Positions 10,115 to 25,957 of a stretch of DNA of 55,890 bases are shown piece by piece. How positions within the stretch are numbered: position 1 is the first letter of the stretch; each line of letters starts with the position of its first letter. The stretch is taken from contig JAVRLX010000003.1 of NCBI GenBank assembly GCA_031960985.1, forward strand, positions 1 through 55,890, in the 5' to 3' direction. The translations under genes and the position numbers were made by a program. The DNA is from Campylobacterales bacterium (lineage in GTDB: Bacteria > Campylobacterota > Campylobacteria > Campylobacterales > UBA6016). Under the pieces are notes generated by a model. That model ran no database searches. It saw only the letters and a program-made list of their open reading frames with translations, and had not been told where the DNA came from.

Positions 10115-10138
10115 TTAATATCAAAAAAGGGCTTTGTG

Positions 10139-10528
10139 ATGACTCATTCGGATTTTGCGCATCCATATTTTGGCGCCTTCATATTGATGGTTTTTACCTT
10201 TGTCGCTTTTTTTGCAACTACAAATGTTGCGAGATTTGTAAGCCGCTTATTGGCAAAAAAAGATACGGAAAAACTAAAACTATCCATATATGAGTGCGGT
10301 CCGGAAGCAAACCTACAGCCAAACAAACTTTCGGCTCAGTTTTATCTATTCGGACTTCTTTTTATTTTGTTTGATATAGAGATTATTTTTATGTTTCCAT
10401 GGGCGCTTGATTTTAAGATGCTTGGATGGTTTGGGATGGTTGAGATGACAATATTTCTTATACTGCTTACAATTGGTTTTGTATATGCATGGAAAAAAGG
10501 AGCGCTTCAATGGCACAGCATAAAGTAA
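10139..10528 (+). CDS. nuoA: NADH-quinone oxidoreductase subunit A
   Basis: About 129 aa with three hydrophobic helices and 'YECGPE...[12 protein letters not shown]' (NuoA/ND3 signature). ATG at 10139 preferred over GTG at 10136 on Shine-Dalgarno spacing. Confidence 0.92.
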
Positions 10529-11019
10529 ACTACGCGGCAAGCGGCGGACTTCCGGTTGCATTAACTACGGTTGACAAGCTTGTAAACTGGGGGCGCTCAA
10601 ACAGCCTTTGGGCGTTTACATTTGGTCTTGCATGTTGCGCAATAGAGATGATGGCATCGGGCGCTGGAAGGTATGACTTTGACCGTTTCGGTACTATCTT
10701 TAGAGCCTCCCCTAGACAATCTGACGTAATGGTGGTAGCAGGTACGGTAACCAAAAAATACGCCCCTTTTATTAGGAGGCTATATGACCAAATGGCAGAG
10801 CCTAGATGGGTAATCTCTATGGGTTCATGCGCAAATACAGGTGGTATGTTTAACACATATAGCACCGTTCAAGGGGTAGATAGGATAATCCCTGTGGATA
10901 TTTATTTGCCAGGGTGTGCGCCAAGACCTGAGACTCTCCAATACGCAGTTATGATGCTCCAGCAACACATTAGAAAAAATAAAGCCTCTAGAGCCCAGAT
11001 ACAAAAAAGGTTTGTATAA
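10510..11019 (+). CDS. nuoB: NADH-quinone oxidoreductase subunit B (N2 cluster)
   Basis: '[17 protein letters not shown]', '[10 protein letters not shown]' and 'PGCAPRPE' are the N2 cluster ligand motifs. Start set at 'MAQHKVNY' (ATG 10510), overlapping the end of nuoA. Confidence 0.93.
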
Positions 11020-11816
11020 TGAGAAGATATACGCCAAAAGATAATGTCCAAAAGAAATCTTACTATACAGATAGGTTTAGAGCCCCTGATGTATTGCCAA
11101 AAGAGGATGTTGAAAATGATCCGATATTTGCAAAAGATACGGAGGAGCTAAAAAAGGTTTTTGATATTAAAGAGGCCTACATCCAAAGGGGTCAGCTTGT
11201 CGTAATCATAGACGCCACAAAAAATGTCGAAGTGATAAAGTTTTTTAAAGAGAAGTTGGCATACAACCAACTAAGTGAGATGAGCGCCGTAGACTTCGTA
11301 GCAAAGTGCGGAGGATTTGAGGTGTTTTATCAGCTTTTATCTATGAGTAAGAAAAAAAGAGCAAGGGTTAAGTGCTTTATTAAAGATGGCGAAAACATAG
11401 AGAGTGTATCTAATATCTACTCCTCTGCAAACTGGGCTGAAAGGGAGATGTATGATATGTTTGGTATTAGAGTCAACAATCACCCAATGCTAAAAAGAAT
11501 CCTACTTCCAGACGATTGGGTGGGGCATCCACTTCGCAAAACATATCCTTTGCAAGGGGATGAGTTTGCAAGCTGGTATGAAGTTGATAAAATCTATGGC
11601 AAAGAGGCAAGGGAGATTATTGGGCCAGAGCTTAGAGACGCCGCATTTATCGACAGACACGATACAACAAGATTTGCAAGGCTTGGCAAAGAGGTCGGAT
11701 ATGGCGAAGAGTACAAAGAGACAACTACTGAAATAGCGTATCAAGAGGAGGATAGACCACTCCTTATTGACAAATTTGACCCAAGCAAAACAACGCTTGC
11801 AGATAGAGAAAGATAG
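11019..11816 (+). CDS. nuoC: NADH-quinone oxidoreductase subunit C
   Basis: 265 aa. '[20 protein letters not shown]' is the NuoC/30-kDa subunit signature. Confidence 0.92.
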
Positions 11817-11830
11817 GAGGGGGCGATAAT

Positions 11831-13057
11831 ATGCAACAACCAAATAAACTACGCCCATTTTTTGAAAATATAACATTTGACCGTGAAGATAATAGAATGA
11901 TTGTTAACTTTGGTCCAAACCACCCGTCTGCACACGGTCTTTTGAACCTTATATTGGAACTAGAGGGCGAGCAGGTCGCAAAAGCGTATCCAAACATCGG
12001 TTTTCTCCACAGAGGGATGGAGAAAATGGCGGAAAACATGATATACAACGAGTTTTTGCCAACTACAGATAGGATGGATTATATCGCTGCTTCCTCAAAC
12101 AACTACGGTTTTGCCCTTGCGGTAGAGAAATTAATTGGTCTTGAAGTACCAAGAAGAGCAAAAGCCATCAGAACAATGCTAATTGAACTAAACAGAATTT
12201 GCTCACATCTATTTTTTATCGCTACGCACGCCCTTGATATTGGAGCAATGAGCGTATTTCTTTATGCTTTTAGAGAAAGAGAGCACGCAATGGACCTTAT
12301 TGAGGACTACTGCGGCGCAAGGCTAACGCACTCCTCCATTAGAATAGGTGGTGTGCCGCTCGATGTTACCCCCGCTTGGCTTGAAAAACTTAAAAATTAT
12401 ATAGACACTTTGGAAGAGAATATCCAAATATACGAAGGGCTTCTTGATTCAAACAGAATTTGGAGGATGAGGCTCGAAAATGTGGGTATATTACCTCCTG
12501 AGATGGCTATTGATTGGGGTTGCTCTGGCATTATGCTAAGAGGAAGCGGCATTAAATGGGATATTAGAAAAGAGGAGCCGTATGAGCTTTATGATGAGTT
12601 AGATTTTGATGTGCCAGTAGCCGAAACATGTGATAGTTATGGGAGATATAAATGTTATATGTTAGAGATGAGAGAGTCGGCCAAAATAATCGATCAGTGC
12701 ATCAAAATATACCATACAACCGAGCCAAAAATTATGGCGGAGGCTCCACAGTATATATCAGCGCCAAAAGAGCAGATAATGACTCAAAACTACTCTTTAA
12801 TGCAACACTTTGTACTTGTAACACAAGGGATGAGACCACCTAAAGGGGAGGTGTATGTAGCCACAGAGTCGCCTAAAGGGGAGCTTGGATACTACATCTA
12901 TAGCGACGGCGAGCCTTATCCTTATAGGCTAAAAATTAGAGCCCCAAGTTTCTGGCACACCGGAATTCTCCAAGCTTGGCTTCCAGGTGTTCAACTAGCC
13001 GATGTTGTAACGATGATAGGCAGCTCAAATACCGTATTTGGCGAGGTAGATAGATGA
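11831..13057 (+). CDS. nuoD: NADH-quinone oxidoreductase subunit D
   Basis: 408 aa. '[15 protein letters not shown]', 'HRGMEKMAE' and C-terminal 'VFGEVDR' are NuoD/49-kDa signatures. Confidence 0.95.
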
Positions 13058-13145
13058 TGAAGAATTCATCTCTGCTCAATAGAGCAAGCTTTAGTGAGAG
13101 GAATTTTGCTGCGGCTTTGCCGACTGCAAAAGGAGATATGAAAAT

Positions 13146-13370
13146 ATGAAACGATTTGACCTTAGACATTTGAAAAATGATTTTTATAGCCGTATGGTGG
13201 AGCTTATGAATGAAAGTGTCGCAAAAGATGAGGTTGCAATATTTTTGTTTGAAGTAGGCGATTTTAGCCCTGTGCAAAAAAGCGCTGATTTGGTCAAAGA
13301 GAATGGTTGGATACTTATGAACAGTCTTAAATATAATGAAGTTGACTGGACAATTGTGGTAAAGAAATAA
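13146..13370 (+). CDS. small cysteine-free protein at the nuoE position (function unknown)
   Basis: 74 aa, AAGGAG 10 nt upstream, and a 1-nt gap to the next gene. No Cys, so it cannot carry the NuoE [2Fe-2S] cluster. 'FDLRHL...' with alternating beta/alpha propensity is weakly reminiscent of TusA/DUF2249-like small domains. Confidence 0.6.
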   Translation: MKRFDLRHLKNDFYSRMVELMNESVAKDEVAIFLFEVGDFSPVQKSADLVKENGWILMNSLKYNEVDWTIVVKK

Positions 13371-13371
13371 A

Positions 13372-15369
13372 ATGGCAAATATCTTTTTTAGCCTCTGGCA
13401 AGACGAGCTTATAGACAACCGCAACAAAAGCGAAGGGGAGCTAGCAAAAAGCAAGTTTCACTTCCCATACGAATTTGAAGCAGGGCAAAATACAAAGGCT
13501 TTTATAGGTTGGGCTGGAGTTGCAATCTTTGATAAAAAGGTTGATGTAATTAAACTCGCCGTCGAATATGCAAAGACATACCAAGAATACTCTGAAGCTT
13601 GCGGTAGATGTGCGCCGGGTAGATGGGGTGGTAGGATAATCTATGATGTGTTGCATAAAATTGGCAGAGGCGAGGGGAGCGAAAATGATATTACCCACTT
13701 AAAAGAGATTTGTGCTTCGATGAAAGAGACCTCAAAGTGTGAAATAGGAAAGAGTGTTCCAAATCCAATTCTAGCGCTTTTGGAGCATTTTGAAGAAGAA
13801 TTTACAACACTTATCAAAGAGAAAAAAGCATCGCCTGATTTTTACAAAAATGATGTTTCATACATCGCCAAAATCACCGCCCCTTGCATGGACGCCTGTC
13901 CAGCGCATGTCGATATTCCAGCGTATATCGAAGGGGTTAGAGACCTTAGGTTTGACGATAGCCTAAAAGCAACTCGTCAAACTATGCCGCTAGCGCACAC
14001 TTGCGGTAGAGTATGTCCTCACCCTTGTGAGAGCGCTTGCAGAAGAACAAACCTTGATGAGCCTATAGCCATTATGGAATTAAAAAGAATAGGCGCTGAC
14101 TACGAGACAGATAGAGAACTTGGCTGGTTTCATCCTATAGAGCCAAAACCAAAAACCGATAAAAAAGTAGCCATAATAGGCGCAGGTCCTGCAGGTTTAA
14201 CAGCCGCATACTATTTAGGGGCTGAGGGAATACATTGCGATGTATACGAAGAGCTTCCGGTTTTGGGCGGCGAGGTGGCAGTTGGGGTCCCTGAGTACAG
14301 GATGCCAATTAGCAAATACAATAAAGATATAGAGCTTGTAAAAAGCGTCGGCACAAACTTTATTGTGAACACAAGAGTTACCGCCGATATGATGAGAGAG
14401 TTTGAAAAGTCGTATGATGCAATTTTGATAGCGACAGGGGCTAGACTCTCCAAAAAAATAAGGGCTAAAAACGAAAATCCAAAAGATAAGGGGTATTGGC
14501 CAGCCATCCCTTTCCTTGATGAGATAAATTTATATACAAAATATGGGATAGGTAGCCCTGTGGATTTGACTGGCAAAACCGTCGTATGTGTGGGCGGAGG
14601 CTTTACCTCTATGGACGTTGTCCGCTGCTCCATCCGCGCAAACGCAAAAAGGGTTGTAATGCTCTATAGGAGGGATGAGAAAACCATTATTAACAATACA
14701 TCCTATGAAGAGTACCACGAAGCGGTCGAGGAGGGTGTAGAGTTTATATTCTATAGCGCTATCGATGAGATAGTATCTGAAAACGGGCAAATTAAAAAAT
14801 TAATTGTAGATATGTATGAATTGGTGCCAGATCCTGCGGGCGGCAAACCACAACTTCTAAAGGCGGAGGGTAAAAGTTTTGAATTGGAGTGTGACATCCT
14901 AGTTCCTGCCGTTAGTCAAGATGCCGATTTGTCACTACTACCTGAAGAGTGGGAGATAGCAAAAACTAGCTGGAATACAATACTTACAGATGGCAAAACA
15001 TATCAGACAAATAAAGAAAAAGTGTTTGCCGCTGGCGACTGCGAATATGGTCCAATGACAATAGTTAACGCTGTAGGTCAAGCCAAAAGGGCTGCTAGCG
15101 TAATGGCTAGATATATTTTTGAAGGCAAGGTGTATAGAACTGATGAGGAGATAATGGAAGATCACCTCAAAGCGCTCAAAGTATATGATAAAAAAGAGGT
15201 TGTAAAAGGGTGGCTTAAAGGGCTCCATAGAGAGCATAGTGAAAAACTTGGGGTTGATGAGAGAAAAACAAATAACCTTGAAGTTAACTACGGCCTTACA
15301 ATCAAGCAGGCGATAGATGAAGCCAATCGGTGCATGAGATGTTATTATATAGCTATGGTGGCGGTGTAG
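13372..15369 (+). CDS. fusion flavoprotein at the nuoF position: NuoF C-terminal (N3 cluster-like) segment plus a GltD/NfnB-type NAD(P)H-dependent FAD oxidoreductase
   Basis: 665 aa. Res 70-145 'EYSEACGRCAPGRWGG...SKCEIGKSVPNPILALLEHFEEEF' aligns by eye to the NuoF 'ESCGxCxPCReG...C.lG...P..s.l..F..Ef' tail. Res 170-225 'APCMDACPAHVDIP...CGRVCPHPCESAC' is the GltD/DPD-type Fe-S domain. 'KKVAIIGAGPAGLTAAYYL' and 'KTVVCVGGGFTSMDV' are two Rossmann motifs, followed by 'VFAAGDC'. Confidence 0.85.
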   Translation: MANIFFSLWQDELIDNRNKSEGELAKSKFHFPYEFEAGQNTKAFIGWAGVAIFDKKVDVIKLAVEYAKTYQEYSEACGRCAPGRWGGRIIYDVLHKIGRGEGSENDITHLKEICASMKETSKCEIGKSVPNPILALLEHFEEEFTTLIKEKKASPDFYKNDVSYIAKITAPCMDACPAHVDIPAYIEGVRDLRFDDSLKATRQTMPLAHTCGRVCPHPCESACRRTNLDEPIAIMELKRIGADYETDRELGWFHPIEPKPKTDKKVAIIGAGPAGLTAAYYLGAEGIHCDVYEELPVLGGEVAVGVPEYRMPISKYNKDIELVKSVGTNFIVNTRVTADMMREFEKSYDAILIATGARLSKKIRAKNENPKDKGYWPAIPFLDEINLYTKYGIGSPVDLTGKTVVCVGGGFTSMDVVRCSIRANAKRVVMLYRRDEKTIINNTSYEEYHEAVEEGVEFIFYSAIDEIVSENGQIKKLIVDMYELVPDPAGGKPQLLKAEGKSFELECDILVPAVSQDADLSLLPEEWEIAKTSWNTILTDGKTYQTNKEKVFAAGDCEYGPMTIVNAVGQAKRAASVMARYIFEGKVYRTDEEIMEDHLKALKVYDKKEVVKGWLKGLHREHSEKLGVDERKTNNLEVNYGLTIKQAIDEANRCMRCYYIAMVAV

Positions 15370-15370
15370 A

Positions 15371-17602
15371 ATGGAAGTTAAAATTACTATAAACGGCATG
15401 GAAATTACCGCCGATAAAAACGATACGATACTAAAAGCGGCAAGAAAAGCTGGCATATACATCCCTACCCTTTGCTATCTATCAAAATGTGAACCCATAG
15501 CCTCATGCAGACTCTGCGTTGTGGAGGCCGAAAATCAAGATGGGCTTATCCTTGCTTGCCAAACAAAAGTAGTTGACGGACTTGTTATAAATACAAACTC
15601 TGAGAAGTTAGCAAGAGAGCGACAAAAAATTATGGAGCTCTATTGCGTCAATCACCCGTTAGAGTGTGGTGTATGCGATAAATCTGGGGAGTGTGAGCTA
15701 CAAAATAAAACACTTGAATTTGGGGTAACCACCCAAGAGTTTATGGCAGTTGATCAAAAAAGAGAGATAAAAGATTGGAATCTTATACAGTACGACCCAT
15801 CTCTTTGTATCTTGTGCGAAAAATGTGTCCACACCTGCAATGAAATCATCGGGGACGATGCAATAGAGATAAAAGTTGGGGGCTATAAATCAATTATAGG
15901 GCCAAAAAACTCTGAGATGCTAAATTGCACATTTTGCGGGGAGTGCATTGCTGTTTGCCCAGTTGGTGCACTAATTTCAAAAGAGTTTAAATACAAATCA
16001 AACGCTTGGGAGCTTAAAAAAGTTCCATCCTCTTGCGCACACTGCTCATCGGCGTGTCATCTATATTACGAAGTAAAACATGAAAAAACAGAGTCGTTAG
16101 AGCAAAAAATTTATAGAGTCTCAAATGAGTTTGAGTTTAGCACCCTTTGCAAAGCTGGAAGATTTGGATTTGATTTTGATAATAAAGCCACAAAAGATGA
16201 AAAAGCATTTGAAAAGGCTGTAGGCGCTCTAAAATCAGCTAGAACTATCAAATTTAACTCATTTATTACGAATGAAGAAGCCAAAATACTTCAAACGATA
16301 AAAGAAAAATTGGGAGTAAAACTTGTAAACCCTGATGCTTATAATTTTAAAAAGTTTATGGATGCATACGCTAGCGTTAGTGGTAAGAGTTTGTACTCAG
16401 CAAGCCTAAGTGATATTAAAAACAGCGATGGGATTATTGTTATTGGCGCAATGATAAGCGTTGATAATCCAATGGTAAGATATGCCCTAAATGAAGCCTC
16501 AAAAAAACAAAATGCAAAAGTTGTATATTTACACCCGATAGAAGATCCTTTGCTTAGCGCAAATGTCAATAAATTTGTCAAATATGAGCCAAAAAGCGAA
16601 GAGGGGGTGATAGCACTACTTGCATCTATTTTTGTGGATAAAAATGCCCTAAATGATGAGCAAAAAAGATTTTTTGATGAGCTCGATGTGGGATATGTAA
16701 GCTCAGAAGCAAGCTTTGATGAAGCAGAGCAGGAGATAGTAGCCAAAATGTTTAAAAGGGCGAAAAACAAAACTCTCATCCTCGGCGCCGACCTTTATTC
16801 ACACCCAAGAGCAGAAAATATAGCAAGACTTGCTGGTTTGTTTGAAAGGGCATCTGGTTTTAAAGTCTTAATTATCCCTTCACAAACAAATACACTAGGC
16901 GTATCTATGATTTGTGATTTGGATGAAAAAGGGGAAGGATTTACAGTTGGGTATAACGAAGAGGGGGATTTTGTTCTTACTTCTTTGGGAAGTGAGGGAA
17001 GAGATAACGCCCTTGATATGCCAGCTCTTAATCAACAAGAGGGGACATTTGTAAATATAGATAAAAGGGTAGTTCCTCTAAATGCGGCTATAGAGTTTAA
17101 AGGGTATGAACTAAATGACCTTGCAAACGCTTTAGGAATTAAAAAAGAGTTTACTATCGACTATACAAAAGAGCTATTTGATGGTGTAGCATTTGATGAT
17201 TTACCTAATAGATTTTTAAATGATGGCACAGAAGATAGAGGGTATGTTTTAAAACCAAAAGATGTTGAAATAAATGGCAAAATAGAAGATGTTGCAGAGC
17301 TTGAAGAGATGAATGGGACACTTGTTTATGTCTCTAATCCGGTGGGGCAGTTTAATGAGTGGACAAAAAAAAGCCAAAATCTAAACTACAAAAAGGGACA
17401 AATCTTGGGCTCTAAGGCCTTTATGGTAGCCGCTAAAGTTAGAGATTCTGAACAAATCTGTGTAACAAGCGAAAAAGGTGAGATGGTAGGTAATTATAAG
17501 TTATGTGAAAACCTAAAAGGAACTGTTGCTATAGTTTCAACGCTTGATTTTAAAGCAGACGGATATAGATTTCAAAGAGCAAAAATAAGTGTTCAAGGGT
17601 AG
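15371..17602 (+). CDS. nuoG: NADH-quinone oxidoreductase subunit G, paralogue 1 (743 aa)
   Basis: [2Fe-2S] region 'CYLSKCEPIASCRLCVVE', 'NHPLECGVCDKSGECELQ', 'CILCEKCVHTC', 'CTFCGECIAVCPVGAL', plus an N7-like 'SSCAHCSSACHLYYE...LCKAGRFGFDF'. Confidence 0.9.
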   Translation: MEVKITINGMEITADKNDTILKAARKAGIYIPTLCYLSKCEPIASCRLCVVEAENQDGLILACQTKVVDGLVINTNSEKLARERQKIMELYCVNHPLECGVCDKSGECELQNKTLEFGVTTQEFMAVDQKREIKDWNLIQYDPSLCILCEKCVHTCNEIIGDDAIEIKVGGYKSIIGPKNSEMLNCTFCGECIAVCPVGALISKEFKYKSNAWELKKVPSSCAHCSSACHLYYEVKHEKTESLEQKIYRVSNEFEFSTLCKAGRFGFDFDNKATKDEKAFEKAVGALKSARTIKFNSFITNEEAKILQTIKEKLGVKLVNPDAYNFKKFMDAYASVSGKSLYSASLSDIKNSDGIIVIGAMISVDNPMVRYALNEASKKQNAKVVYLHPIEDPLLSANVNKFVKYEPKSEEGVIALLASIFVDKNALNDEQKRFFDELDVGYVSSEASFDEAEQEIVAKMFKRAKNKTLILGADLYSHPRAENIARLAGLFERASGFKVLIIPSQTNTLGVSMICDLDEKGEGFTVGYNEEGDFVLTSLGSEGRDNALDMPALNQQEGTFVNIDKRVVPLNAAIEFKGYELNDLANALGIKKEFTIDYTKELFDGVAFDDLPNRFLNDGTEDRGYVLKPKDVEINGKIEDVAELEEMNGTLVYVSNPVGQFNEWTKKSQNLNYKKGQILGSKAFMVAAKVRDSEQICVTSEKGEMVGNYKLCENLKGTVAIVSTLDFKADGYRFQRAKISVQG
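16025..16399. repeat. mosaic high-identity block, copy A (56 bp identical, ~63 bp diverged, ~255 bp at roughly 90 %)
   Basis: Aligned by eye to 18337-18711 at a constant offset of 2312. 16025-16080 is identical. In 16144-16399 I counted about 24 mismatches. Confidence 0.8.
16774..17364. repeat. 591-bp perfect direct repeat, copy A (inside nuoG paralogue 1)
   Basis: Base-by-base comparison with 19242-19832 (offset 2468) showed no mismatch. Identity stops abruptly at both ends. Confidence 0.95.
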
Positions 17603-17610
17603 CAAAATAA

Positions 17611-20076
17611 ATGGCAAATGTTAAATTTTTTATAGACGGGCGAGAAGTAAAGGGGAGCGACTCTGAGACGATACTAAATATCGCAAGGGCAAATAATATT
17701 TTTATCCCCGCAATATGCTATCTCAATAGATGCTCTCCTACTTTAGCGTGCAGGCTTTGTTTGGTTGAGGCGGATGGGAAGCAGGTATTTGCATGTAACG
17801 CAAAACCTAAAGAGGGGATGCAGGTAGTCACCAACTCCGAAGAGGTAAAAGCGGAGCGAAAAGCTATTATGCAAGCTTACGATATTAACCACCCTTTGGA
17901 GTGTGGCGTGTGCGACAAATCTGGAGAGTGCGAGCTACAAAACTATACGATGGAAGTTAGCGTTGACACCCAAGAGTATAGTGTGGCCGACTGCCCAAGA
18001 CCTATTAGAAAATGGGGGCTAGTTAAATACGACTCATCGCTTTGTATCGTGTGTGAAAGATGTATAACAGTATGTAAAGATATGGTAGGAGATAACGCAC
18101 TTACTACTACCCCAAGAGGTGGCGCCGAGATAGACAAAAAATACAAAGAGGTTATGCCAAAAAACGCATTTACGATTTGGACAAGGATGCAAAAAAACAT
18201 TATCGGCACAAAAAGCGGCAATCCAGATGTGCTTGATTGTACGCTATGCGGTGAGTGCATAGCTGTTTGCCCAGTTGGCGCTCTAACAAGCTCCGATTTT
18301 ACCTACAAATCAAACGCTTGGGAACTTCGCCAAATACCATCCTCTTGCGCACACTGCTCATCGGCGTGTCATCTATATTACGAAGTAAAACACACATCCA
18401 TAGACAACGCCGAAGAAAGAATATATAGAGTTAGGAATGAATGGAATTTTCAAAGCCTTTGCAAAGCTGGCAGATTTGGATTTGATTTTGACAATAAAGC
18501 TACAAAAGATGAAAAAGCCTTTGAAAAAGCGATAGGGGCTCTAAAATCAGCTAGAACTATCAAATTTAACTCATTTATCACCAATGAAGAAGCCAAAATA
18601 CTTCAAACAATAAAAGAGAAAAACGGCGTAAAACTAGTAAACTCTGATGCTTATAACTTTAAAAAGTTTATTGGCGCCTACTCTAGCGTTAGTGGTAAGA
18701 GTTTGTACTCATCCGATCTAAAGGATGTTCGCGCAAGTAATTTTGTAATCACGCTTGGCTCCATGATAAAAACGGACAATCCAATACTCAGATTTGGGGT
18801 AAATAACGCCGTTACGATGAACAAGGGCGCCGCTGTGTATATGCACCCAATTAATGACGCTGTAATCTCTGGGCTATCCAAAAATCTATTACAGCTAAAT
18901 TATAAACCTTTAAGTGAAGAAAAAACGCTACTTGCGCTAATAGACACATTCTGCGAAAAAGACAAATTACCGTCAGATATAACCGAAAAACTAAAATCTT
19001 TAGAGGTTAAATACACAAAAACTGTTACCGAAAAGGTAAAAGAGAGGGTTAAAGAGCTAATTAAAGAAAAAGTGGTGGCTGAGGATGGCACAGAGTCTGA
19101 AGTTGAAAAAGAGGTAGAAAAAGAGGTTGAAAAATCGGTAAGCAAAGAAGTAGAGATGACATCCTCTAAACTCTTTGAACAAATCGGCCTTGAGTTAGAA
19201 GATATGGAGAAAATGAAGGCTCTTAAAAAAGATAAAGCCGTTCTCATCCTCGGCGCCGACCTTTATTCACACCCAAGAGCAGAAAATATAGCAAGACTTG
19301 CTGGTTTGTTTGAAAGGGCATCTGGTTTTAAAGTCTTAATTATCCCTTCACAAACAAATACACTAGGCGTATCTATGATTTGTGATTTGGATGAAAAAGG
19401 GGAAGGATTTACAGTTGGGTATAACGAAGAGGGGGATTTTGTTCTTACTTCTTTGGGAAGTGAGGGAAGAGATAACGCCCTTGATATGCCAGCTCTTAAT
19501 CAACAAGAGGGGACATTTGTAAATATAGATAAAAGGGTAGTTCCTCTAAATGCGGCTATAGAGTTTAAAGGGTATGAACTAAATGACCTTGCAAACGCTT
19601 TAGGAATTAAAAAAGAGTTTACTATCGACTATACAAAAGAGCTATTTGATGGTGTAGCATTTGATGATTTACCTAATAGATTTTTAAATGATGGCACAGA
19701 AGATAGAGGGTATGTTTTAAAACCAAAAGATGTTGAAATAAATGGCAAAATAGAAGATGTTGCAGAGCTTGAAGAGATGAATGGGACACTTGTTTATGTC
19801 TCTAATCCGGTGGGGCAGTTTAATGAGTGGACCGCCAAATGCTCTCAACTAAAAGAGGGGGCAAATATAGTGTATGTTGGTAAAAAAGCGGCTGAAATAC
19901 ATAACCTAAAAGATGATGATGAAATAAGACTTACAATTGGCGCTTACAAAGTCAAAATTGACCAAAAAGTCTCATCAAATATCCTTTTGGTACCAGCGTA
20001 TGAGCCAAATAATCCGGGATTTGAGACCCTGCGAGAAGGGTACAAATTTAGGACAACTGAGATCATCAAGGGGTAA
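17611..20076 (+). CDS. nuoG: NADH-quinone oxidoreductase subunit G, paralogue 2 (821 aa)
   Basis: Same full set of Fe-S motifs: 'CYLNRCSPTLACRLCLVE', 'NHPLECGVCDKSGECELQ', 'CIVCERCITVC', 'CTLCGECIAVCPVGAL', 'SSCAHCSSACHLYYE'. Its length matches what I recall for Campylobacter/Helicobacter NuoG (~820-840 aa). Confidence 0.9.
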   Translation: MANVKFFIDGREVKGSDSETILNIARANNIFIPAICYLNRCSPTLACRLCLVEADGKQVFACNAKPKEGMQVVTNSEEVKAERKAIMQAYDINHPLECGVCDKSGECELQNYTMEVSVDTQEYSVADCPRPIRKWGLVKYDSSLCIVCERCITVCKDMVGDNALTTTPRGGAEIDKKYKEVMPKNAFTIWTRMQKNIIGTKSGNPDVLDCTLCGECIAVCPVGALTSSDFTYKSNAWELRQIPSSCAHCSSACHLYYEVKHTSIDNAEERIYRVRNEWNFQSLCKAGRFGFDFDNKATKDEKAFEKAIGALKSARTIKFNSFITNEEAKILQTIKEKNGVKLVNSDAYNFKKFIGAYSSVSGKSLYSSDLKDVRASNFVITLGSMIKTDNPILRFGVNNAVTMNKGAAVYMHPINDAVISGLSKNLLQLNYKPLSEEKTLLALIDTFCEKDKLPSDITEKLKSLEVKYTKTVTEKVKERVKELIKEKVVAEDGTESEVEKEVEKEVEKSVSKEVEMTSSKLFEQIGLELEDMEKMKALKKDKAVLILGADLYSHPRAENIARLAGLFERASGFKVLIIPSQTNTLGVSMICDLDEKGEGFTVGYNEEGDFVLTSLGSEGRDNALDMPALNQQEGTFVNIDKRVVPLNAAIEFKGYELNDLANALGIKKEFTIDYTKELFDGVAFDDLPNRFLNDGTEDRGYVLKPKDVEINGKIEDVAELEEMNGTLVYVSNPVGQFNEWTAKCSQLKEGANIVYVGKKAAEIHNLKDDDEIRLTIGAYKVKIDQKVSSNILLVPAYEPNNPGFETLREGYKFRTTEIIKG
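18337..18711. repeat. mosaic high-identity block, copy B
   Basis: Partner of 16025-16399 (see that entry). Confidence 0.8.
19099..19134 (+). repeat. 3 x 12-bp imperfect tandem repeat encoding (EVEK)3
   Basis: 'gaagttgaaaaa gaggtagaaaaa gaggttgaaaaa', read directly. It lies in the K/E-rich insertion specific to nuoG paralogue 2. Confidence 0.85.
19242..19832. repeat. 591-bp perfect direct repeat, copy B (inside nuoG paralogue 2)
   Basis: Identical to 16774-17364. It encodes the same 197 aa ('ILGADLYSHPRAENIARLAG...VSNPVGQFNEWT') in both genes. Confidence 0.95.
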
Positions 20077-20078
20077 TA

Positions 20079-21068
20079 ATGGAAGCTTACATCATAGAGA
20101 CGATAGTCAAAATAATTGTCGTTGTAGCGGTTTTTTCCGCGCTAGCGGGATTTGCTACATATGTAGAGAGGAAGGTGTTGGCCTTTATGCAACGAAGGCT
20201 TGGGCCTATGCATGTTGGACCGTATGGAGTACTACAAATTTTAGCTGATGGTATCAAGCTATTTACCAAAGAGGATATTGTTCCTCAAAATGCCATCAAG
20301 CCTATATTTAAAATAGCTCCAGTGATTACTGCGGCTACCGCTTTTATAGCTATGGCCGCAATACCGTTTTTGCCTGAATTTGAGCTATTTGGACACACGG
20401 TAAGACCTATTATTTCAGATGTAAATGTTGGCATTCTTTTTGTCCTATCGGTAATGGCTACGGGGATGTACGGCCCTCTTTTAGCTGGTATATCTTCAAG
20501 GAGCAAATGGGCGCTACTAGGTGGCGCTAGAACTGTTATTCAAATGCTAAGCTTTGAGGTTGTATCTGGCTTTGCTTTGCTTGCTCCGCTTATGATGGTA
20601 GGCTCTTTATCGCTAATAGAGATTAACAATTACCAATCTGGCGGTATATCTCATTGGCTTATCTGGTATCAACCAGTCGCTTTTGTATTATTTATTATCG
20701 CTGGATATGCAGAGACCAATAGAACCCCTTTTGACCTTCTTGAGCATGAAGCGGAAGTTGTATCTGGTTATGCTACCGAGTATTCGGGTATGAGATGGGG
20801 TATGTTCTTTATTGGCGAATATGCAAATATGTTTACGATAGCATTCCTTGTCTCTATCGTATTCTTCGGCGGTTTCAACCCAATCGGCTTTATTCCAGGC
20901 GGTGTTGCCATTATCCTAAAAGCGTTCTTTTTTATATTCTTGTTTTTGTGGGCAAGAGCTGCGTGGCCACATGTTAGACCTGACCAACTTATGTGGCTAT
21001 GCTGGAAGGTGCTTATGCCGCTTGCGGTTGTAAACATACTAGTTACCGGTTTATTTATTCTGATTTAG
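20079..21068 (+). CDS. nuoH: NADH-quinone oxidoreductase subunit H
   Basis: 329 aa, polytopic. 'VERKVLAFMQRRLGP', 'NRTPFDLLEHEAEVVSGYATEYSGM' and 'RPDQLM' are NuoH/ND1 signatures. Confidence 0.95.
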   Translation: MEAYIIETIVKIIVVVAVFSALAGFATYVERKVLAFMQRRLGPMHVGPYGVLQILADGIKLFTKEDIVPQNAIKPIFKIAPVITAATAFIAMAAIPFLPEFELFGHTVRPIISDVNVGILFVLSVMATGMYGPLLAGISSRSKWALLGGARTVIQMLSFEVVSGFALLAPLMMVGSLSLIEINNYQSGGISHWLIWYQPVAFVLFIIAGYAETNRTPFDLLEHEAEVVSGYATEYSGMRWGMFFIGEYANMFTIAFLVSIVFFGGFNPIGFIPGGVAIILKAFFFIFLFLWARAAWPHVRPDQLMWLCWKVLMPLAVVNILVTGLFILI

Positions 21069-21077
21069 GGGTTTGGG

Positions 21078-21656
21078 ATGGGATATAAGATTGTAGAGAT
21101 AGAAAAATACCCTGTTAGCCCTCTCGCTAAATTTGCAAGGGTGGTTAAACGCTCTTTAAGGCTAGAGTTATTTGTTGGACTTTGGATAGTTCTAAAAGAG
21201 ATGATCAAGTTTGACATCCATACTGTCCAGTATCCAAAAGAGAAATTGCCGATAGGCCCGAGATACAGAGCTGTTCACGAGCTTTTGAGACTACTTGAAA
21301 GTGGAAATGAAAGATGTATCGGCTGTGGACTTTGCGAAAAGATATGCATATCAAAATGCATTAGAATGGATACCTTCCAAGACGAAAACGGCAGAAAAGC
21401 AGTCAGTGAATACACAATAAATTTGGGCAGATGTATATTTTGTGGCTACTGTGCCGAGGTGTGCCCTGAGCTTGCAATCGTACATGGCCCAAGATACGAA
21501 AATGCATCTGAGCAAAGAGCCCACTTTGTTTTAAAAGACGATATGCTAACCCCTATCGACTTTTTAAAAGCTGGCAAACAAAAAGAGTTTGAAGGTTTCG
21601 GCGCCATTAGCGCAGACGCCGACAAAAATATCAAACAAACGCCTCTAGCGTATTAA
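21078..21656 (+). CDS. nuoI: NADH-quinone oxidoreductase subunit I (2 x [4Fe-4S])
   Basis: 192 aa with '[11 protein letters not shown]' and '[12 protein letters not shown]'. Confidence 0.93.
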
Positions 21657-21666
21657 AGGGATAAAA

Positions 21667-22251
21667 ATGTTTGAACAAATAGCTTTTTATACGTTTGCAG
21701 GCCTCACGGCGGCAATGTTTCTAATCACCGTTACAAGCAAAAACATACTCTATGCGATGAGCGCCCTTGCCGCTGGGATGATATTTATCTCTGGATTTTT
21801 CTTTATCCTAAACGCAGATTTTCTCGGAGTTGTGCAAATAGTTGTATATGCGGGGGCGGTAATGGCTTTGTATGCGTTTGGAATGATGTTTTTTGACAGC
21901 GCAAAAGAGAGTGAAGAAAAAATCAAAAATCCAAAAAAGACACTTGTAATGTCGGTAGCCACTGCGGTTTTGATAGTGCTTATGCTAAGCGCTCCTATAG
22001 CGGCAAGCAAGCCCGATGTGTTGATGGAGAGCGTAACTGGGATGCAAAATCCTCAAGCGATAGGCGCTATTTTATTTACAAAATATCTAATCCCTTTTGA
22101 GCTAGCCTCTTTAATGCTTCTTATAGCAATGATTGCTGGGATTGTACTCGCAGGTAAGAAAATGGATGAGAGTTTAACCACAAATAGCGACGAAGAGATG
22201 CAAATTCTTGAAGAGTTTAGACTTGACGGCGATACAAAGGAGCATAAATGA
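21667..22251 (+). CDS. nuoJ: NADH-quinone oxidoreductase subunit J
   Basis: 194 aa hydrophobic. 'GVVQIVVYAGAVMALYAF' is typical of NuoJ/ND6. Operon position fits. Confidence 0.88.
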   Translation: MFEQIAFYTFAGLTAAMFLITVTSKNILYAMSALAAGMIFISGFFFILNADFLGVVQIVVYAGAVMALYAFGMMFFDSAKESEEKIKNPKKTLVMSVATAVLIVLMLSAPIAASKPDVLMESVTGMQNPQAIGAILFTKYLIPFELASLMLLIAMIAGIVLAGKKMDESLTTNSDEEMQILEEFRLDGDTKEHK

Positions 22252-22550
22252 TAACTTTAAATCAATATCTTATTTTGGCGACCCTCCTCTTTTGTATAGG
22301 GCTTTTTGGCGTCATTAGAAGAAAAAATCTTTTAATGCTATTTTTTGCAACAGAGATTATGCTAAATGCGGTCAATATAGCGCTTGCGGCTATTAGTTAT
22401 TTTATGCACGACCTTACGGGACAGATTTTTGCGTTTTTTATTATAGCGATTGCGGCTAGCGAAGTAGCGGTTGGGCTAGGCTTTTTGATACTTATGTACA
22501 AAAGAATGGGCTCACTCGATCTTGACAATCTACAGATTATGAAAGGGTAG
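22248..22550 (+). CDS. nuoK: NADH-quinone oxidoreductase subunit K
   Basis: 100 aa with three TM helices. 'MLFFATEIMLNAVNIAL' and 'AIAASEVAVGLGFLI' are NuoK/ND4L signatures. Confidence 0.92.
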   Translation: MITLNQYLILATLLFCIGLFGVIRRKNLLMLFFATEIMLNAVNIALAAISYFMHDLTGQIFAFFIIAIAASEVAVGLGFLILMYKRMGSLDLDNLQIMKG

Positions 22551-22555
22551 CCAAT

Positions 22556-24418
22556 ATGGAAAATTTGCTTTATATAACGCTTTTTGCTCCGCTTGTAGGC
22601 TCTATATTTGCCGCGCTATTCGGTGGATGCAAGAAAAACATATTAGCCGGTATCGTACCTAGCGCGCTTCTTTTTATCGCCACCATTACGGCCATTATAC
22701 AGCTTGGCGCAGTTATTGAGGGGAAAGTTATTAACGCAACGCTATTTGAGTGGATAGCCTCAGGCAACTTTAGAGTTGATTTTGGCTTTACAGCAGATCA
22801 AATATCTGTTGTAATGATGTGCGTCGTAACAATTGTTTCTACCCTTGTGCACATCTACTCTATCGGATACATGAGCCACGATGAGGGTTTTAATAGATTT
22901 TTTAGCTACCTATCGTTGTTTGTATTCTCAATGCTAGTACTTGTAATGAGCGATAATTTCCTCGGTCTTTTTATCGGCTGGGAAGGGGTTGGTCTATGTT
23001 CATGGCTACTTATCGGCTTTTGGTATAAAAAACCGTTTGCCACTTGGGCTGCAAATGAAGCATTTATAATGAACCGTGTGGCCGACCTTGGAATGCTTGT
23101 GGGTCTGTTTATTATATTTTGGCATACAGGAAGCCTAAAATACACTGAAGTTTTTACCGCAATAAAAGGTATCGACTCTACAGTTTTATCTTTAGCGGCG
23201 GTATTTTTGTTTATCGGCGCAATGGGAAAATCGGCTCAGTTTCCGTTTCATACTTGGCTTGCAGATGCAATGGAGGGTCCAACTCCTGTTTCAGCCCTTA
23301 TCCACGCCGCTACGATGGTTACAGCAGGGGTTTATTTGATGGTTAGAGGGCACGAACTATTTGCTCTTACGCCTGAAGTTAGCTTATTTGTGGCCTCTCT
23401 TGGTGCTTTCGTTGCGGCATTTGCCGCTACAATGGGTCTTGTCAATCGTGATCTCAAAAGAATTATAGCCTACTCCACCCTCTCGCAATTAGGGTATATG
23501 TTTGTTGCGGCAGGGCTTGGAGCGTATTGGGTCGCCTTGTTTCACCTTATGACGCACGCATTCTTTAAAGCCCTCTTGTTCCTTGGCGCAGGCAATGTAA
23601 TGCATGCAATGCACGACGAGCTTGACATCAAAAAAATGGGTGGACTATACAAACCAATGAAAGCGACAGCTATTATGATGATACTAGCCTCCGTCGCCCT
23701 TGCAGGTATCTATCCGTTTGCCGGCTTTTTCTCAAAAGATAAAATCTTAGAGGTAGCGTTTGGGACACACCATTACATCCTATGGGCAACACTTTTGATA
23801 ACTGCGGTACTTACAGCGTTTTATAGCTTTAGACTTATTATGCTTGTATTTTTTGGAAAAGAGAACTACAAAGAGCATTTCCCAACCCTTCATCCACACG
23901 AAGCCTATTGGTATATGCTTGCCGCGATGGCTCCACTTGCCGTTCTTGCCGCAATAGCCGGTTTCTTTGAACACTCTTTAATTGAGCTTTTACACAAAAT
24001 AATGCCTATTTTGCATCCGCATATGGAAGAAGGGACAATTATGGCGCTTATAGCCGTTACGACGGTGGCTGTCGTATCCTCTATAGCATTTACGGTCTAC
24101 AAATATAACAAAGGGGGATTTAGTAAAGAGCTTGAAAATAGCTTTTTGTATAAACTGCTTTACAATCAATACTATATCCCTGAGCTTTACAACAGATTTT
24201 TGGTTGCCCCATACATCAAACTCTCAGAGTTTGCATGGAAAAAGATAGACTTAAAAATTATCGACTTTATCGTTGATGCTATCGCCCTTATTATTTACAA
24301 AAGTGGTGAAAAATCGAGATACATTCAAAGCGGTAATCTATCTTCGATGCTTAGATGGATGGTCGCCGGTATTTTAATACTAATAATTTTTGCGGCTCTT
24401 TATAGCCCGATTAAGTAA
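22556..24418 (+). CDS. nuoL: NADH-quinone oxidoreductase subunit L
   Basis: 620 aa antiporter-like subunit. 'GWEGVGLCSWLLIGFW', 'GKSAQFPFHTWLADAMEGPTPVSALIHAATMVTAG'. Confidence 0.95.
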   Translation: MENLLYITLFAPLVGSIFAALFGGCKKNILAGIVPSALLFIATITAIIQLGAVIEGKVINATLFEWIASGNFRVDFGFTADQISVVMMCVVTIVSTLVHIYSIGYMSHDEGFNRFFSYLSLFVFSMLVLVMSDNFLGLFIGWEGVGLCSWLLIGFWYKKPFATWAANEAFIMNRVADLGMLVGLFIIFWHTGSLKYTEVFTAIKGIDSTVLSLAAVFLFIGAMGKSAQFPFHTWLADAMEGPTPVSALIHAATMVTAGVYLMVRGHELFALTPEVSLFVASLGAFVAAFAATMGLVNRDLKRIIAYSTLSQLGYMFVAAGLGAYWVALFHLMTHAFFKALLFLGAGNVMHAMHDELDIKKMGGLYKPMKATAIMMILASVALAGIYPFAGFFSKDKILEVAFGTHHYILWATLLITAVLTAFYSFRLIMLVFFGKENYKEHFPTLHPHEAYWYMLAAMAPLAVLAAIAGFFEHSLIELLHKIMPILHPHMEEGTIMALIAVTTVAVVSSIAFTVYKYNKGGFSKELENSFLYKLLYNQYYIPELYNRFLVAPYIKLSEFAWKKIDLKIIDFIVDAIALIIYKSGEKSRYIQSGNLSSMLRWMVAGILILIIFAALYSPIK

Positions 24419-24427
24419 GGAGAGCAG

Positions 24428-25957
24428 ATGGAAAATATCTTATCGCTTTTACTATTGTTTCCGGCTCTCGCCGCAGTAGTCGGGGCATTTGTACCAAAGC
24501 AGAATATAAAAACATTTGGCGCGGTAGCAACGGGATTAGAGTTTTTGCTTACAATTCCTGTACTGCTTGGCTTTGATCCAAAAAATCCCGGGTTTCAGTT
24601 TACGGAGAAGTTTCCGCTAATACCAGATTATGGGATATTTTACTATGTTGGAGTAGATGGTTTTTCTGTTTATCTCCTCGCGCTATCGACATTTATATCT
24701 TTTATAGCGATAGTTGCGTTAGAAGATCTAAAAAATATGAAAAACCTCATTATTACCCTCCTTTTTATGGAAGTAACAATGGTGGGCTTTTTTATCGCCC
24801 TTGACGCCATAGTGTTTTATATATTCTTTGAGCTCTCTTTGGTCCCTATGATGTATATTATTGGCTCATGGGGTTCATACAAAAGGGTGTATGCGGCGGT
24901 AAAATTTTTCCTATATACATTTGCTGGCTCACTTATTATGCTTTTAGGTGTTATCTATCTTGGATATGCATTTCACGAAGCAACAGGCGTTTGGAGTTTT
25001 GCTATTCCAAACTGGCATCTACTATTGCTGCCGTTTGATGTCCAGATATTGGTATTCCTTGCGTTTTTTGCCGGTCTTGCAGTCAAAGTCCCAATGTTTC
25101 CTTTCCACACATGGCTTCCGTATGCGCACGGTCAAGCTCCAACAGTTGGCTCGGTAATACTTGCGGCGGTACTCCTTAAAATGGGTACATACGGCTTCTT
25201 GCGGCTCTCATTTCCAATCATGCCAGATGCAACGCTATATTTTGTAACCCCAATTGCAATACTCTCCCTTATCATGGTAGTCTATACCGCCATGATAGCT
25301 TTCGCTCAAAGCGATATGAAGCAAGTTGTGGCATATAGCTCGGTTTCTCACATGGGCATTATTATGCTTGGTATGTTTGCGCTAAATGTGGAGGGTATCG
25401 CAGGTTCTGTATTTTTGATGATTAGCCACGGTATCGTCTCAGGCGCGCTGTTTATGCTTGTTGGAGTCATATATGAGAGGCTTCACACCAAAGAGATGAG
25501 CGAGTTTGGCGGTATTACTAGTGTGATGCCAAAATATGGGACAATATTTGGTATCGTCCTTATGGGCTCTGTCGGTCTGCCGCTTACTATCGGCTTTGTG
25601 GGTGAATTTTTATCACTTTTAGGCTTTTTTAAAGTATCCCCTATAATGACGCTAATTGCTGGAACTACAATAATCTTAGGCGCTATATACATGCTAAATC
25701 TCTTTAGAAAATCGTTCTTTGGACAAGTTACAAATCAAAAAATATTTGAGCTCAAGGATTTGACAAAAAGGGAGCTTGCAGGGCTTATTCCACTAACAAT
25801 TCTCGTGATAGTGTTAGGTGTATATCCAAAGCCAGTACTACAACCTGCAGAGTCTAGCGCAAAGCATCTAGTGGAACTAATGTTCAAAAAATCTCAAAGC
25901 TTTAACGCAAAACTAAGCATTTTAGATTACAACTCACTTTCAGGAGGCGCGAAGTGA
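24428..25957 (+). CDS. nuoM: NADH-quinone oxidoreductase subunit M
   Basis: 509 aa. 'VKVPMFPFHTWLPYAHGQAPTVGSVILAAVLLKMGTYGF'. Operon position fits. Confidence 0.93.
   Translation: MENILSLLLLFPALAAVVGAFVPKQNIKTFGAVATGLEFLLTIPVLLGFDPKNPGFQFTEKFPLIPDYGIFYYVGVDGFSVYLLALSTFISFIAIVALEDLKNMKNLIITLLFMEVTMVGFFIALDAIVFYIFFELSLVPMMYIIGSWGSYKRVYAAVKFFLYTFAGSLIMLLGVIYLGYAFHEATGVWSFAIPNWHLLLLPFDVQILVFLAFFAGLAVKVPMFPFHTWLPYAHGQAPTVGSVILAAVLLKMGTYGFLRLSFPIMPDATLYFVTPIAILSLIMVVYTAMIAFAQSDMKQVVAYSSVSHMGIIMLGMFALNVEGIAGSVFLMISHGIVSGALFMLVGVIYERLHTKEMSEFGGITSVMPKYGTIFGIVLMGSVGLPLTIGFVGEFLSLLGFFKVSPIMTLIAGTTIILGAIYMLNLFRKSFFGQVTNQKIFELKDLTKRELAGLIPLTILVIVLGVYPKPVLQPAESSAKHLVELMFKKSQSFNAKLSILDYNSLSGGAK

Follow-up and report, generated by a model that had tools for sequence, protein, structure and literature searches.

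A NuoF-tail::permuted-GltD flavoprotein and an HP1264-family subunit at the NuoE/NuoF positions of a two-NuoG complex I operon in Campylobacterota

With what does complex I exchange electrons when its operon encodes neither NuoE nor NuoF? This question is raised by a 55,890-nucleotide contig of a Campylobacterales bacterium (JAVRLX010000003.1, assembly GCA_031960985.1), the full length of which is here called the window. It carries a complete nuoA-N operon with two nuoG paralogues on the + strand, the strand of all window features given below. Between nuoD and the first nuoG lie a gene for a 74-amino acid protein (13146–13370) and a gene for a 665-amino acid protein (13372–15369). The original prediction, drawn from the DNA letters, had placed exactly these two open reading frames (ORFs) there, the first without cysteine, and no NuoE or NuoF; our annotation agrees with it to the nucleotide. 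We consider it moderately probable that, in a complex I of the Campylobacterota type, the two genes encode a peripheral-arm tip linked to NADP(H), not NADH. Judged from sequence, this is a real and conserved module with a predicted link to NADP(H), and its layout has already been noted in Sulfurimonas (10.1101/717884).

The two proteins at the NuoE and NuoF positions

The 665-amino acid protein contains three Pfam domains, NADH_4Fe-4S (amino acids 65–145, E 3e-21), Fer4_20 (amino acids 169–248, E 4.5e-21, 75.2 bits, cut-off 25.8), and Pyr_redox_2 (amino acids 264–571, E 4.4e-25, 89.1 bits, cut-off 26.1). All three exceed their gathering scores and occur in the order that had been foretold, and the GltD/NfnB-type assignment made at the time holds in Pfam and in PDB sequence searches. 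A Complex1_51K (flavin mononucleotide, FMN) domain was not found in the protein by Pfam. Its motifs are EACGRCAPG (C77, C80, and G83), SKCEIG (C123), CMDACP, CGRVCPHPCESAC, VAIIGAGPAG, and VVCVGGGFTSMD. The protein has 7322 homologues, the top 120 of which share 69–91% identity. An AlphaFold2 (AF2) model is confident in the N-terminal tail and the Rossmann domains.

The GltD part is composed of an Fe-S domain (amino acids 169–248; 13876–14115), which contains C172, C176, C211, C215, C219, C223, and K238, and of flavin adenine dinucleotide (FAD) and NADPH Rossmann domains (amino acids 264–571; 14161–15084). Its closest solved relatives in both sequence and fold are NfnA of Nfn-ABC (9bov_A), StnC (8oh5_C), and T. 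sibiricus NfnA, followed by NfnB/NfnL, GltD, and DPD; the PDB sequence search gave E values from 2e-82 (9bov_A) through 1e-74 (8oh5_C) to 3e-48. In its native order, the protein aligns to T. maritima NfnB (4ylf_B) only over NfnB residues 44–459 (236 bits), and its Fer4_20 match begins at profile position 29. These late starts mean that the usual N-terminal CxxC is absent from its place. The invariant C-terminus '...EVNYGLTIKQAIDEANRCMRCYY' resembles the N-terminal segment of canonical GltD/NfnB; the aligned stretch (amino acids 627–659; 15250–15348) ends in RCMRCYY. A permuted query, in which amino acids 618–660 were set ahead of amino acids 169–585, aligned without a break to residues 13–459 of 4ylf_B and scored 254.6 bits. 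The same CxxC segment is likewise located past the Rossmann domains in StnC and NfnA. Because the permuted query aligns unbroken and with a higher score, and because StnC and NfnA share the placement of this segment, the GltD module is, on the evidence of these alignments, circularly permuted.

The cysteines of this segment, C654 and C657, most likely complete the distal [4Fe-4S] cluster. Among 121 sequences, C654 and the six cysteines of the Fe-S domain (C172, C176, C211, C215, C219, and C223) are invariant, and C657 occurs in 120; in all, the family has 11 conserved Fe-S cysteines, of which 10 are invariant. The ligand set for two predicted [4Fe-4S] clusters, eight Cys and K238, is thus complete. 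K238 is invariant in a 34-sequence alignment and aligns with K170 of StnC, a Lys that experiments showed to matter as a ligand of C7, the cluster next to the FAD (PMC10482914); NfnB has a Glu at this position. Y432-R433-R434 (14665–14673) aligns with Y310-R311-R312 of T. maritima NfnB, residues of the NADPH 2'-phosphate site, and is invariant, as are the dinucleotide motifs GAGPAG and GGGFTSMD. Its predicted domains, ligands, and Y-R-R triad class the protein as a GltD/NfnB/StnC-type NADPH-FAD iron-sulfur flavoprotein. We infer from the triad a specificity for NADPH, which fits the NADPH linkage suggested earlier.

A bifurcating entry point had also been suggested, and this now appears unlikely. 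Bifurcating NfnAB has a Glu where this protein has Lys238, and no NfnA/PyrK-like partner is encoded in the operon or its neighborhood up to 38207. The module is of the StnC/NfnA(ABC) type in its Lys238 and its permutation, and together with the lack of such a partner in the operon, this argues against bifurcation at the GltD flavin. The GltD module of StnC has an experimentally determined NADPH site, feeds a NuoG-like chain ending at an N3-type cluster, and is non-bifurcating (PMC10482914).

The N-terminal tail of the 665-amino acid protein (amino acids 20–155; 13429–13836) aligns with the end of the ubiquitin-like domain and the four-helix N3 domain of NuoF-type proteins. TIGR01959 (NuoF) scores 68 bits (cut-off 558.65), with matches only to model positions 294–408, the last ~115; the earlier reading of this part as the C-terminal segment of NuoF with a degenerate N3 site is thereby borne out. 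Scores are higher against the C-terminal N3 domains of HydB, StnB, and NfnB of Nfn-ABC (69–74 bits) than against residues 309–432 of Nqo1, as in respiratory Nqo1/NuoF (~47 bits), and the tail is by this measure a Bfu-type N3 domain, nearer to HydB/StnB than to respiratory NuoF. C77, C80, and C123 (13738–13740) align with three of the N3 ligands and are invariant in the 121 family sequences. The third Cys of the CxxCxxC motif is Gly83, itself invariant in the 34-sequence Campylobacterota alignment, and the four-Cys N3 motif CxxCxxC...C is replaced by C77-x2-C80-x2-G83 (13600–13620) followed by C123. E124 was considered as a lineage-specific substitute for the lost ligand and rejected, since relatives whose Cys motif is complete have it too. 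The third N3 Cys is likewise Gly in some tail::GltD proteins from outside Campylobacterota (P0376, P0382, P0390, and L082 in our alignment). Several such Gly-type proteins have an extra Cys nearby, either as a CC doublet before the motif or as CxxC at the distal Cys, and the Campylobacterota proteins do not.

The 74-amino acid protein contains no Cys and matches PF16514 (NADH-UOR_E) over all of model positions 1–74 (131.1 bits, cut-off 25, E 1.8e-38). Its AF2 model (predicted local distance difference test, pLDDT, 87.6) has a sole significant PDB match in Foldseek, that to H. pylori HP1264 (2lxr; 55% identity, E 8e-7, TM-score 0.72), and the runners-up are TusA-like folds. Across 25 homologues, 31 columns are invariant. 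By sequence and predicted fold, the protein is an HP1264 orthologue and a member of the known HP1264/Cj1575c ('NuoX') family. We rejected the possibility that it is a degenerate NuoE: it lacks Cys, has no 2Fe-2S_thioredx match in Pfam, and in Foldseek gives no NuoE/NDUFV2 fold nor anything thioredoxin-like. Since its family is common to Helicobacter and Campylobacter, the 'NuoE replacement' of this operon is not an independent solution.

Relatives in Campylobacterota and beyond

A survey of gene order across Campylobacterota, advised along with the original prediction, showed that the layout is widespread. Species-representative genomes were scanned with an alignment of the 74-amino acid protein, which yielded at least 343 relatives, and 80 loci were kept for counts. 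The fusion gene directly follows the 74-amino acid gene in 50 of the 80 (type A), which come from Sulfurimonas, Sulfurovum, Nitratifractor, Sulfuricurvum, and MAGs labelled Helicobacteraceae or Campylobacteraceae. All 33 type-A loci that extend to nuoH have two NuoG-size genes, and in all 33 the fusion and NuoG genes lie between nuoD and nuoH with gaps of 1–8 nt. The shorter of the two NuoGs, NuoG-short, always co-occurs with the fusion gene. The longer, NuoG-long, is the orthologue of the single NuoG of the Campylobacter-type (type-B) operons (899 bits, versus 574 against NuoG-short).

Type B accounts for 21 of the 80 loci, from Arcobacter/Aliarcobacter and Sulfurospirillum (L012, L013, L021, L047, and 17 others), and has, besides one long NuoG, a 245–297-amino acid protein at the NuoF position (e.g., L021:9237-10088). 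This protein matches no Pfam family; one from Sulfurospirillum is named 'Epsilonproteobacterial nuoF-like protein' in UniRef. That it might be a remnant of the NuoF tail or of GltD was rejected, as tblastn and blastp found no similarity to either and matched it to NuoG-short instead. It is homologous to NuoG-short at residues ~345–512 and ~634–740 (blastp E 1e-22 to 8e-41), every member scores higher on NuoG-short than on NuoG-long (mean 105 versus 36 bits), and matches to the NCBIfam NuoG model PRK08493 reach E 4e-33. This suggests that it is a truncated paralogue of NuoG-short consisting of the C-terminal (molybdopterin-like) half. Cj1574c and HP1265 probably belong to the same protein family. 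The simplest reading is that a single block, namely the fusion gene together with the Fe-S half of NuoG-short, sets type A apart from type B, in which case the fusion protein and NuoG-short would be a functional pair.

The original prediction had taken the locus for a third solution, apart from that of C. jejuni and H. pylori. With an HP1264 orthologue in the window and a truncated NuoG-short paralogue apparently at the NuoF position of type B, that view has to be given up: by gene content, the module is an elaboration of the Campylobacter/Helicobacter solution. The shared 74-amino acid subunit and the truncated-NuoG protein at the NuoF position may also help to explain, in terms of evolution and structure, the poorly understood complex I of these two species, which depends on flavodoxin. 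The window has in common with C. jejuni Cj1575c and H. pylori HP1264 the same 74-amino acid subunit, and with type-B loci the same long NuoG type, whereas C. jejuni/H. pylori-type operons, as represented by the Arcobacter and Sulfurospirillum loci, have neither tail::GltD nor the Fe-S half of NuoG-short. Complex I of C. jejuni (Cj1575c/Cj1574c) and H. pylori (HP1264/HP1265) is reportedly flavodoxin-dependent, according to Weerakoon and Olson in 2008. Moparthi and Hägerhäll attributed a '12-subunit' complex I to a group in which Sulfurovum and Nitratiruptor stand beside C. jejuni and H. pylori, and van der Stel et al. described nuoEF of Campylobacterota as replaced by nuoXY.

The original prediction also left it open whether the architecture had been characterized, and it has in fact been described together with a mechanistic hypothesis. 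In a 2019 preprint, McNichol and Sievert identified Suden_1824 of Sulfurimonas denitrificans, of which the 665-amino acid protein is an orthologue, as an NfnB/GltD-like NuoF replacement and proposed reverse electron transport (10.1101/717884). Suden_1825–1822 resemble the window in having a non-canonical NuoE, the NfnB/GltD-like protein at the place of NuoF, and two NuoGs; the same NADPH-phosphate residues and Fe-S cysteines were recorded for Suden_1824, and this orthologue and both NuoGs were reported to be expressed (10.1101/717884). The preprint makes no mention of a NuoF tail, a circular permutation, or a Lys ligand, nor of the wider family (10.1101/717884). New here are the permuted order of the GltD module, its Lys ligand of the StnC type, and the recognition of the tail as an N3 domain of the Bfu type, as well as the tie between the type-B protein and NuoG-short, the family-wide pairing with NuoG-type subunits, and a second complex I lineage with the module.

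Like the 665-amino acid protein as predicted here, StnC (8oh5) and NfnA of Nfn-ABC (9bov, 9n5u) have a GltD-like module for NADPH and FAD that includes two [4Fe-4S] clusters, a proximal Lys, and a late CxxC; from this module, electrons enter a chain of NuoG-type clusters that leads to an N3-type cluster. However, their module is inserted in the NuoG-like chain itself, and N3 resides on a separate, full NuoF-like FMN subunit. In the window, GltD follows a lone N3 domain in the same chain, an FMN subunit is missing, and the apparent partner is membrane-bound complex I. FdhB of Moorella thermoacetica (K15022, Moth_2314) has 4Fe-4S, ferredoxin-type, and NADP-binding domains and partners the NuoG-like FdhA (PMC5736913). 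The window protein resembles FdhB in the names given to its homologues and in domain description, and the two differ in that the window partner shows no sign of a catalytic Mo/W site and N3 is one Cys short in Campylobacterota. Compared with the canonical NuoE/NuoF N-module, the two window genes share the operon position and the C-terminal N3 domain of NuoF, but have no FMN/NADH domain, no [2Fe-2S] N1a protein, and only three Cys at N3.

Beyond Campylobacterota, a search of 1.84 billion cluster representatives with the tail alone found many proteins of ~650–685 amino acids with the tail at residues 1–160 (28–37% identity), a permuted GltD, and a C-terminal RCxRCY. These distant tail::GltD proteins come from MAGs of Deltaproteobacteria/Thermodesulfobacteriota and mostly retain the full CxxCxxC. 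Tail, GltD, and C-terminal RCxRC(Y) are common to P0371, P0372, P0376, P0382, P0418, P0426, P0456, P0495, and L123, and close and distant homologues alike are labelled 'formate dehydrogenase (NADP+) beta subunit' by JGI. In 15 of 23 metagenome loci, the downstream neighbor of the distant fusion has a NuoG-type N-terminal Fe-S domain, which backs the earlier idea that the tail may dock a GltD-type flavoprotein onto a NuoG-type subunit. Among the partners are FdhA/NuoG-like proteins with a Molybdopterin domain, an [FeFe]-hydrogenase (L099), and, in L095, a [NiFe]-hydrogenase cluster. Because the fusion pairs with NuoG-type subunits of varied systems, tail::GltD is, to judge from gene neighborhoods, a module that adapts NuoG-type electron wires to NADP(H).

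One such system is again complex I. L123 (4697-11388) encodes nuoB-C-D, a 663-amino acid tail::GltD protein with an intact CxxCxxC, a single 832-amino acid NuoG, and nuoH, and has no 74-amino acid gene; its fusion protein shares 57% identity with a protein from a 'Deltaproteobacteria bacterium' MAG. On gene content, L123 is a second complex I lineage with the module, whose use on complex I appears to have arisen or been transferred at least twice. A further arrangement joins a full NuoF/HydB (FMN domain, SLBB, and N3) to permuted GltD in one chain of ~1010–1116 amino acids (L083:62-3151 and L095:4705-7830; also L084–L088, L093, L096, L107, and L113); Pfam bears out these domains in the two chains examined with it, those of L083 and L095 (~1030–1040 amino acids). 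Such a chain is predicted to carry both an NADH-type and an NADPH-type site. Its genes adjoin NuoG/FdhA-like genes, and in L095 also a [NiFe]-hydrogenase. Another placement of GltD near complex I genes occurs in L130 (4789-8673), where a 596-amino acid NuoF-like protein is followed by a 687-amino acid StnC-like protein (Fer2_4, Fer4_20, Pyr_redox_2, and Fer4_Nqo3) in a nuo-like context, with nuoH upstream and antiporter-size genes downstream.

Proposed electron path and alternatives

In the arrangement we favor, the tail would serve as an adaptor that holds the N3 site, here with three Cys ligands (N3'), and docks on the [2Fe-2S] N-terminal domain of a NuoG-type subunit. The GltD-type Fe-S domain would hold two [4Fe-4S] clusters, the proximal one bound by three Cys and Lys238 and the distal one by four Cys, with the ligands completed by the permuted C-terminal RCxxC. 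Electrons would move between NADPH, FAD, the proximal and distal [4Fe-4S] clusters, and N3' in the tail, and from there through the [2Fe-2S]/[4Fe-4S] clusters of NuoG-short to NuoG-long, NuoI/NuoB, and menaquinone. The GltD flavin would act as a plain two-electron/one-electron converter without bifurcation, as in StnC and NfnA of Bfu-type transhydrogenases, and the 74-amino acid protein would be a structural subunit without cofactor, common to the flavodoxin-dependent Campylobacter/Helicobacter enzyme. The path would run mainly in reverse, with the proton motive force driving menaquinol-dependent reduction of NADP+ for the reductive tricarboxylic acid (rTCA) cycle. Menaquinol is ~250 mV more positive than NADPH, and the relatives with this operon are sulfur- and hydrogen-oxidizing rTCA autotrophs; for these reasons NADP+ reduction is probably the physiological direction, at least in chemolithoautotroph-like lineages, and the 'entry point' spoken of in the original prediction would rather be an exit.

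Sulfurimonas, Sulfurovum, and their relatives dominate sulfidic and vent habitats. A complex I tip specific for NADP(H) would give such organisms a direct route from quinol to NADPH coupled to the proton motive force, and would add a type of N-module to those for NADH/FMN, F420 (FpoF), and ferredoxin/flavodoxin. The source of NADPH and of low-potential reductant from sulfur compounds in rTCA Campylobacterota has been described as unresolved (10.1101/717884).

Several points weigh against this proposal. The contig is a 55.9-kb MAG fragment, and canonical nuoE/nuoF may exist elsewhere in the genome. Canonical complex I has a single NuoG position, against two NuoGs in this operon. The N3' site lacks the third Cys, whereas most distant relatives retain CxxCxxC, and the site may hold a [3Fe-4S] cluster or a cluster with three Cys and a non-Cys or inter-subunit ligand, or may be empty. 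The AF2 model of the 665-amino acid protein has pLDDT <50 in the Fe-S segments 76–82, 170–254, and 595–665. Cluster occupancy is presumed, docking of the protein on Nuo subunits is suggested by operon position and co-occurrence, and the reverse direction was arrived at purely by reasoning. We found no experimental work on the two-NuoG tail::GltD enzyme in the literature, which likewise holds no biochemical or structural data for any complex I-attached member.

The alternatives start from the same facts. In the scheme put forward for Suden_1822–1825, complex I runs in reverse with dual output, such that the proton motive force reduces NADP+ at the GltD-like subunit and also ferredoxin or flavodoxin, with a branch or bifurcation in one NuoG (10.1101/717884). 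Both reductants are required by rTCA autotrophs, and the operon keeps both parts that are still found in type B, namely the 74-amino acid subunit and NuoG-short's C-terminal half; with type B apparently the flavodoxin-dependent Campylobacter type, sites for ferredoxin/flavodoxin and for NADPH could coexist. Nevertheless, the GltD module is of the non-bifurcating StnC type in its Lys ligand and permutation, and the operon lacks an FMN 'flavobicluster' subunit (the NuoF FMN domain/NuoE). The fusion protein ends 8 residues past RCMRC and so has no HydB/StnB-like C-terminal domain with 2x[4Fe-4S] for binding ferredoxin, and a bifurcating centre is not identifiable from sequence. We regard dual output of this kind as unlikely. 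A related idea, which we hold tentatively and still think improbable, is that the two-NuoG complex I is a membrane-bound counterpart, driven by the proton motive force, of the soluble Nfn/Stn transhydrogenases, with a branched wire whose NADP(H) site would be tail::GltD on NuoG-short and whose ferredoxin/flavodoxin site would be the 74-amino acid protein with the C-terminal half of NuoG-short. Were it true, quinol and the proton motive force could yield both rTCA reductants, and the flavodoxin-dependent complex I of Campylobacter/Helicobacter would be a truncated descendant from which the fusion and the Fe-S half of NuoG-short were deleted.

Membership of complex I itself can also be questioned. 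The 665-amino acid protein and NuoG-short could form a soluble, FdhAB-like heterodimer, such as an NADPH:ferredoxin/flavodoxin oxidoreductase, which would be merely co-transcribed and would supply or drain the diffusible carrier of a Campylobacter-type complex I. Relatives of the fusion do form soluble enzymes with NuoG-like partners (formate dehydrogenase-like enzymes and hydrogenases), and an unrelated TrxR/YpdA-like flavoprotein in the same slot of some Sulfurovum loci (L017) hints that selection keeps some NADP-flavoprotein near complex I. Against this stand the embedding of the genes between nuoD and nuoH at gaps of 1–8 nt in every complete type-A locus, the place of NuoG-short in the Campylobacterota NuoG family (PRK08493, 904 bits) with a C-terminal half that survives in type B, and the pairing of the L123 fusion with the sole NuoG of a nuo operon, all of which make a separate enzyme quite unlikely. 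The NuoF-position protein is also said, again from the 2008 work of Weerakoon and Olson, to be essential in C. jejuni. Still less credible, to the point of being nearly dismissed, is that the fusion gene no longer functions and is a relic of reduction toward the Campylobacter-type operon. One Cys is gone from the N3 motif and the gene is wholly lost in type-B operons, but such decay is contradicted by conservation: homologues are 69–91% identical across genera, none of the cofactor motifs varies, and 50 loci have intact reading frames. An NADP(H)-linked tip of complex I thus remains our preferred reading.

Operon context and the nuoG paralogues

Upstream of the two genes lie nuoA (10136–10528, Pfam Oxidored_q4), nuoB (10489–11019, Oxidored_q6), nuoC (11019–11816, Complex1_30kDa), and nuoD (11831–13057, Complex1_49kDa). 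Downstream are nuoG-short (743 amino acids; 15371–17602; Fer2_4, NADH-G_4Fe-4S_3, Fer4_Nqo3, and Molybdopterin), nuoG-long (821 amino acids; 17611–20076), and nuoH, I, J, K, L, M, and N (20079–27435; NADHdh, Fer4_7, Oxidored_q3, Oxidored_q2, and Proton_antipo_M/N). The claim that all genes are packed with gaps of 1–2 nt stands for the 74-amino acid/665-amino acid (1 nt), 665-amino acid/nuoG-short (1 nt), and nuoG-long/nuoH (2 nt) junctions, but not for nuoG-short/nuoG-long (8 nt) or for nuoD and the 74-amino acid gene, which are separated by 88 nt (13058–13145). This last gap is only 2 nt in the closest relatives (L001, L002, and L004). A good ribosome-binding site, AGGAG, precedes the ATG at 13146. 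A promoter and terminator scan found no internal terminator in the operon above chance, with counts equal to the shuffled expectation. Neighboring genes scanned up to 38207 are housekeeping genes, and no NuoE or NuoF domain occurs in the operon or in the 20 non-nuo ORFs tested up to that position, downstream of which the window was unscanned.

Some Campylobacterota loci depart from this arrangement. In L017 (9001-13396), the 74-amino acid homologue has a Lys/Glu/Ala-rich tail (126 amino acids in all) and is followed by the 332-amino acid TrxR/YpdA-like FAD/NAD(P) flavoprotein on the opposite strand and by a single long NuoG, which constitutes a third layout. Another Sulfurovum locus, L080 (2975-6788), has a 446-amino acid paralogue of the NuoG C-terminal half ahead of a long NuoG. 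Several Sulfurovum type-A operons have an extra ORF of 80–124 amino acids between the 74-amino acid and fusion genes (L006:9275-9538, L019:1056-1298, L040:9224-9598, L042:619-861, and L056:9398-9757); the two tested, those of L006 and L040, have no NCBIfam match.

Both NuoGs of the window match PRK08493, NuoG-long with 1079 bits. They share 57% protein identity, compared with 39–49% in most other type-A loci and 36% in S. denitrificans (10.1101/717884). A 591-nt exact direct repeat joins the two genes (16774–17364 and 19242–19832), and a further stretch (15911–16400 and 18223–18712) is 86–93% identical. The repeated segment has 97% identity in a related, independent MAG (L004) and 77% in L018. 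These two cases disfavor an assembly artefact, although a collapsed assembly retains some probability, and lineage-specific gene conversion is the more likely origin of the repeat.

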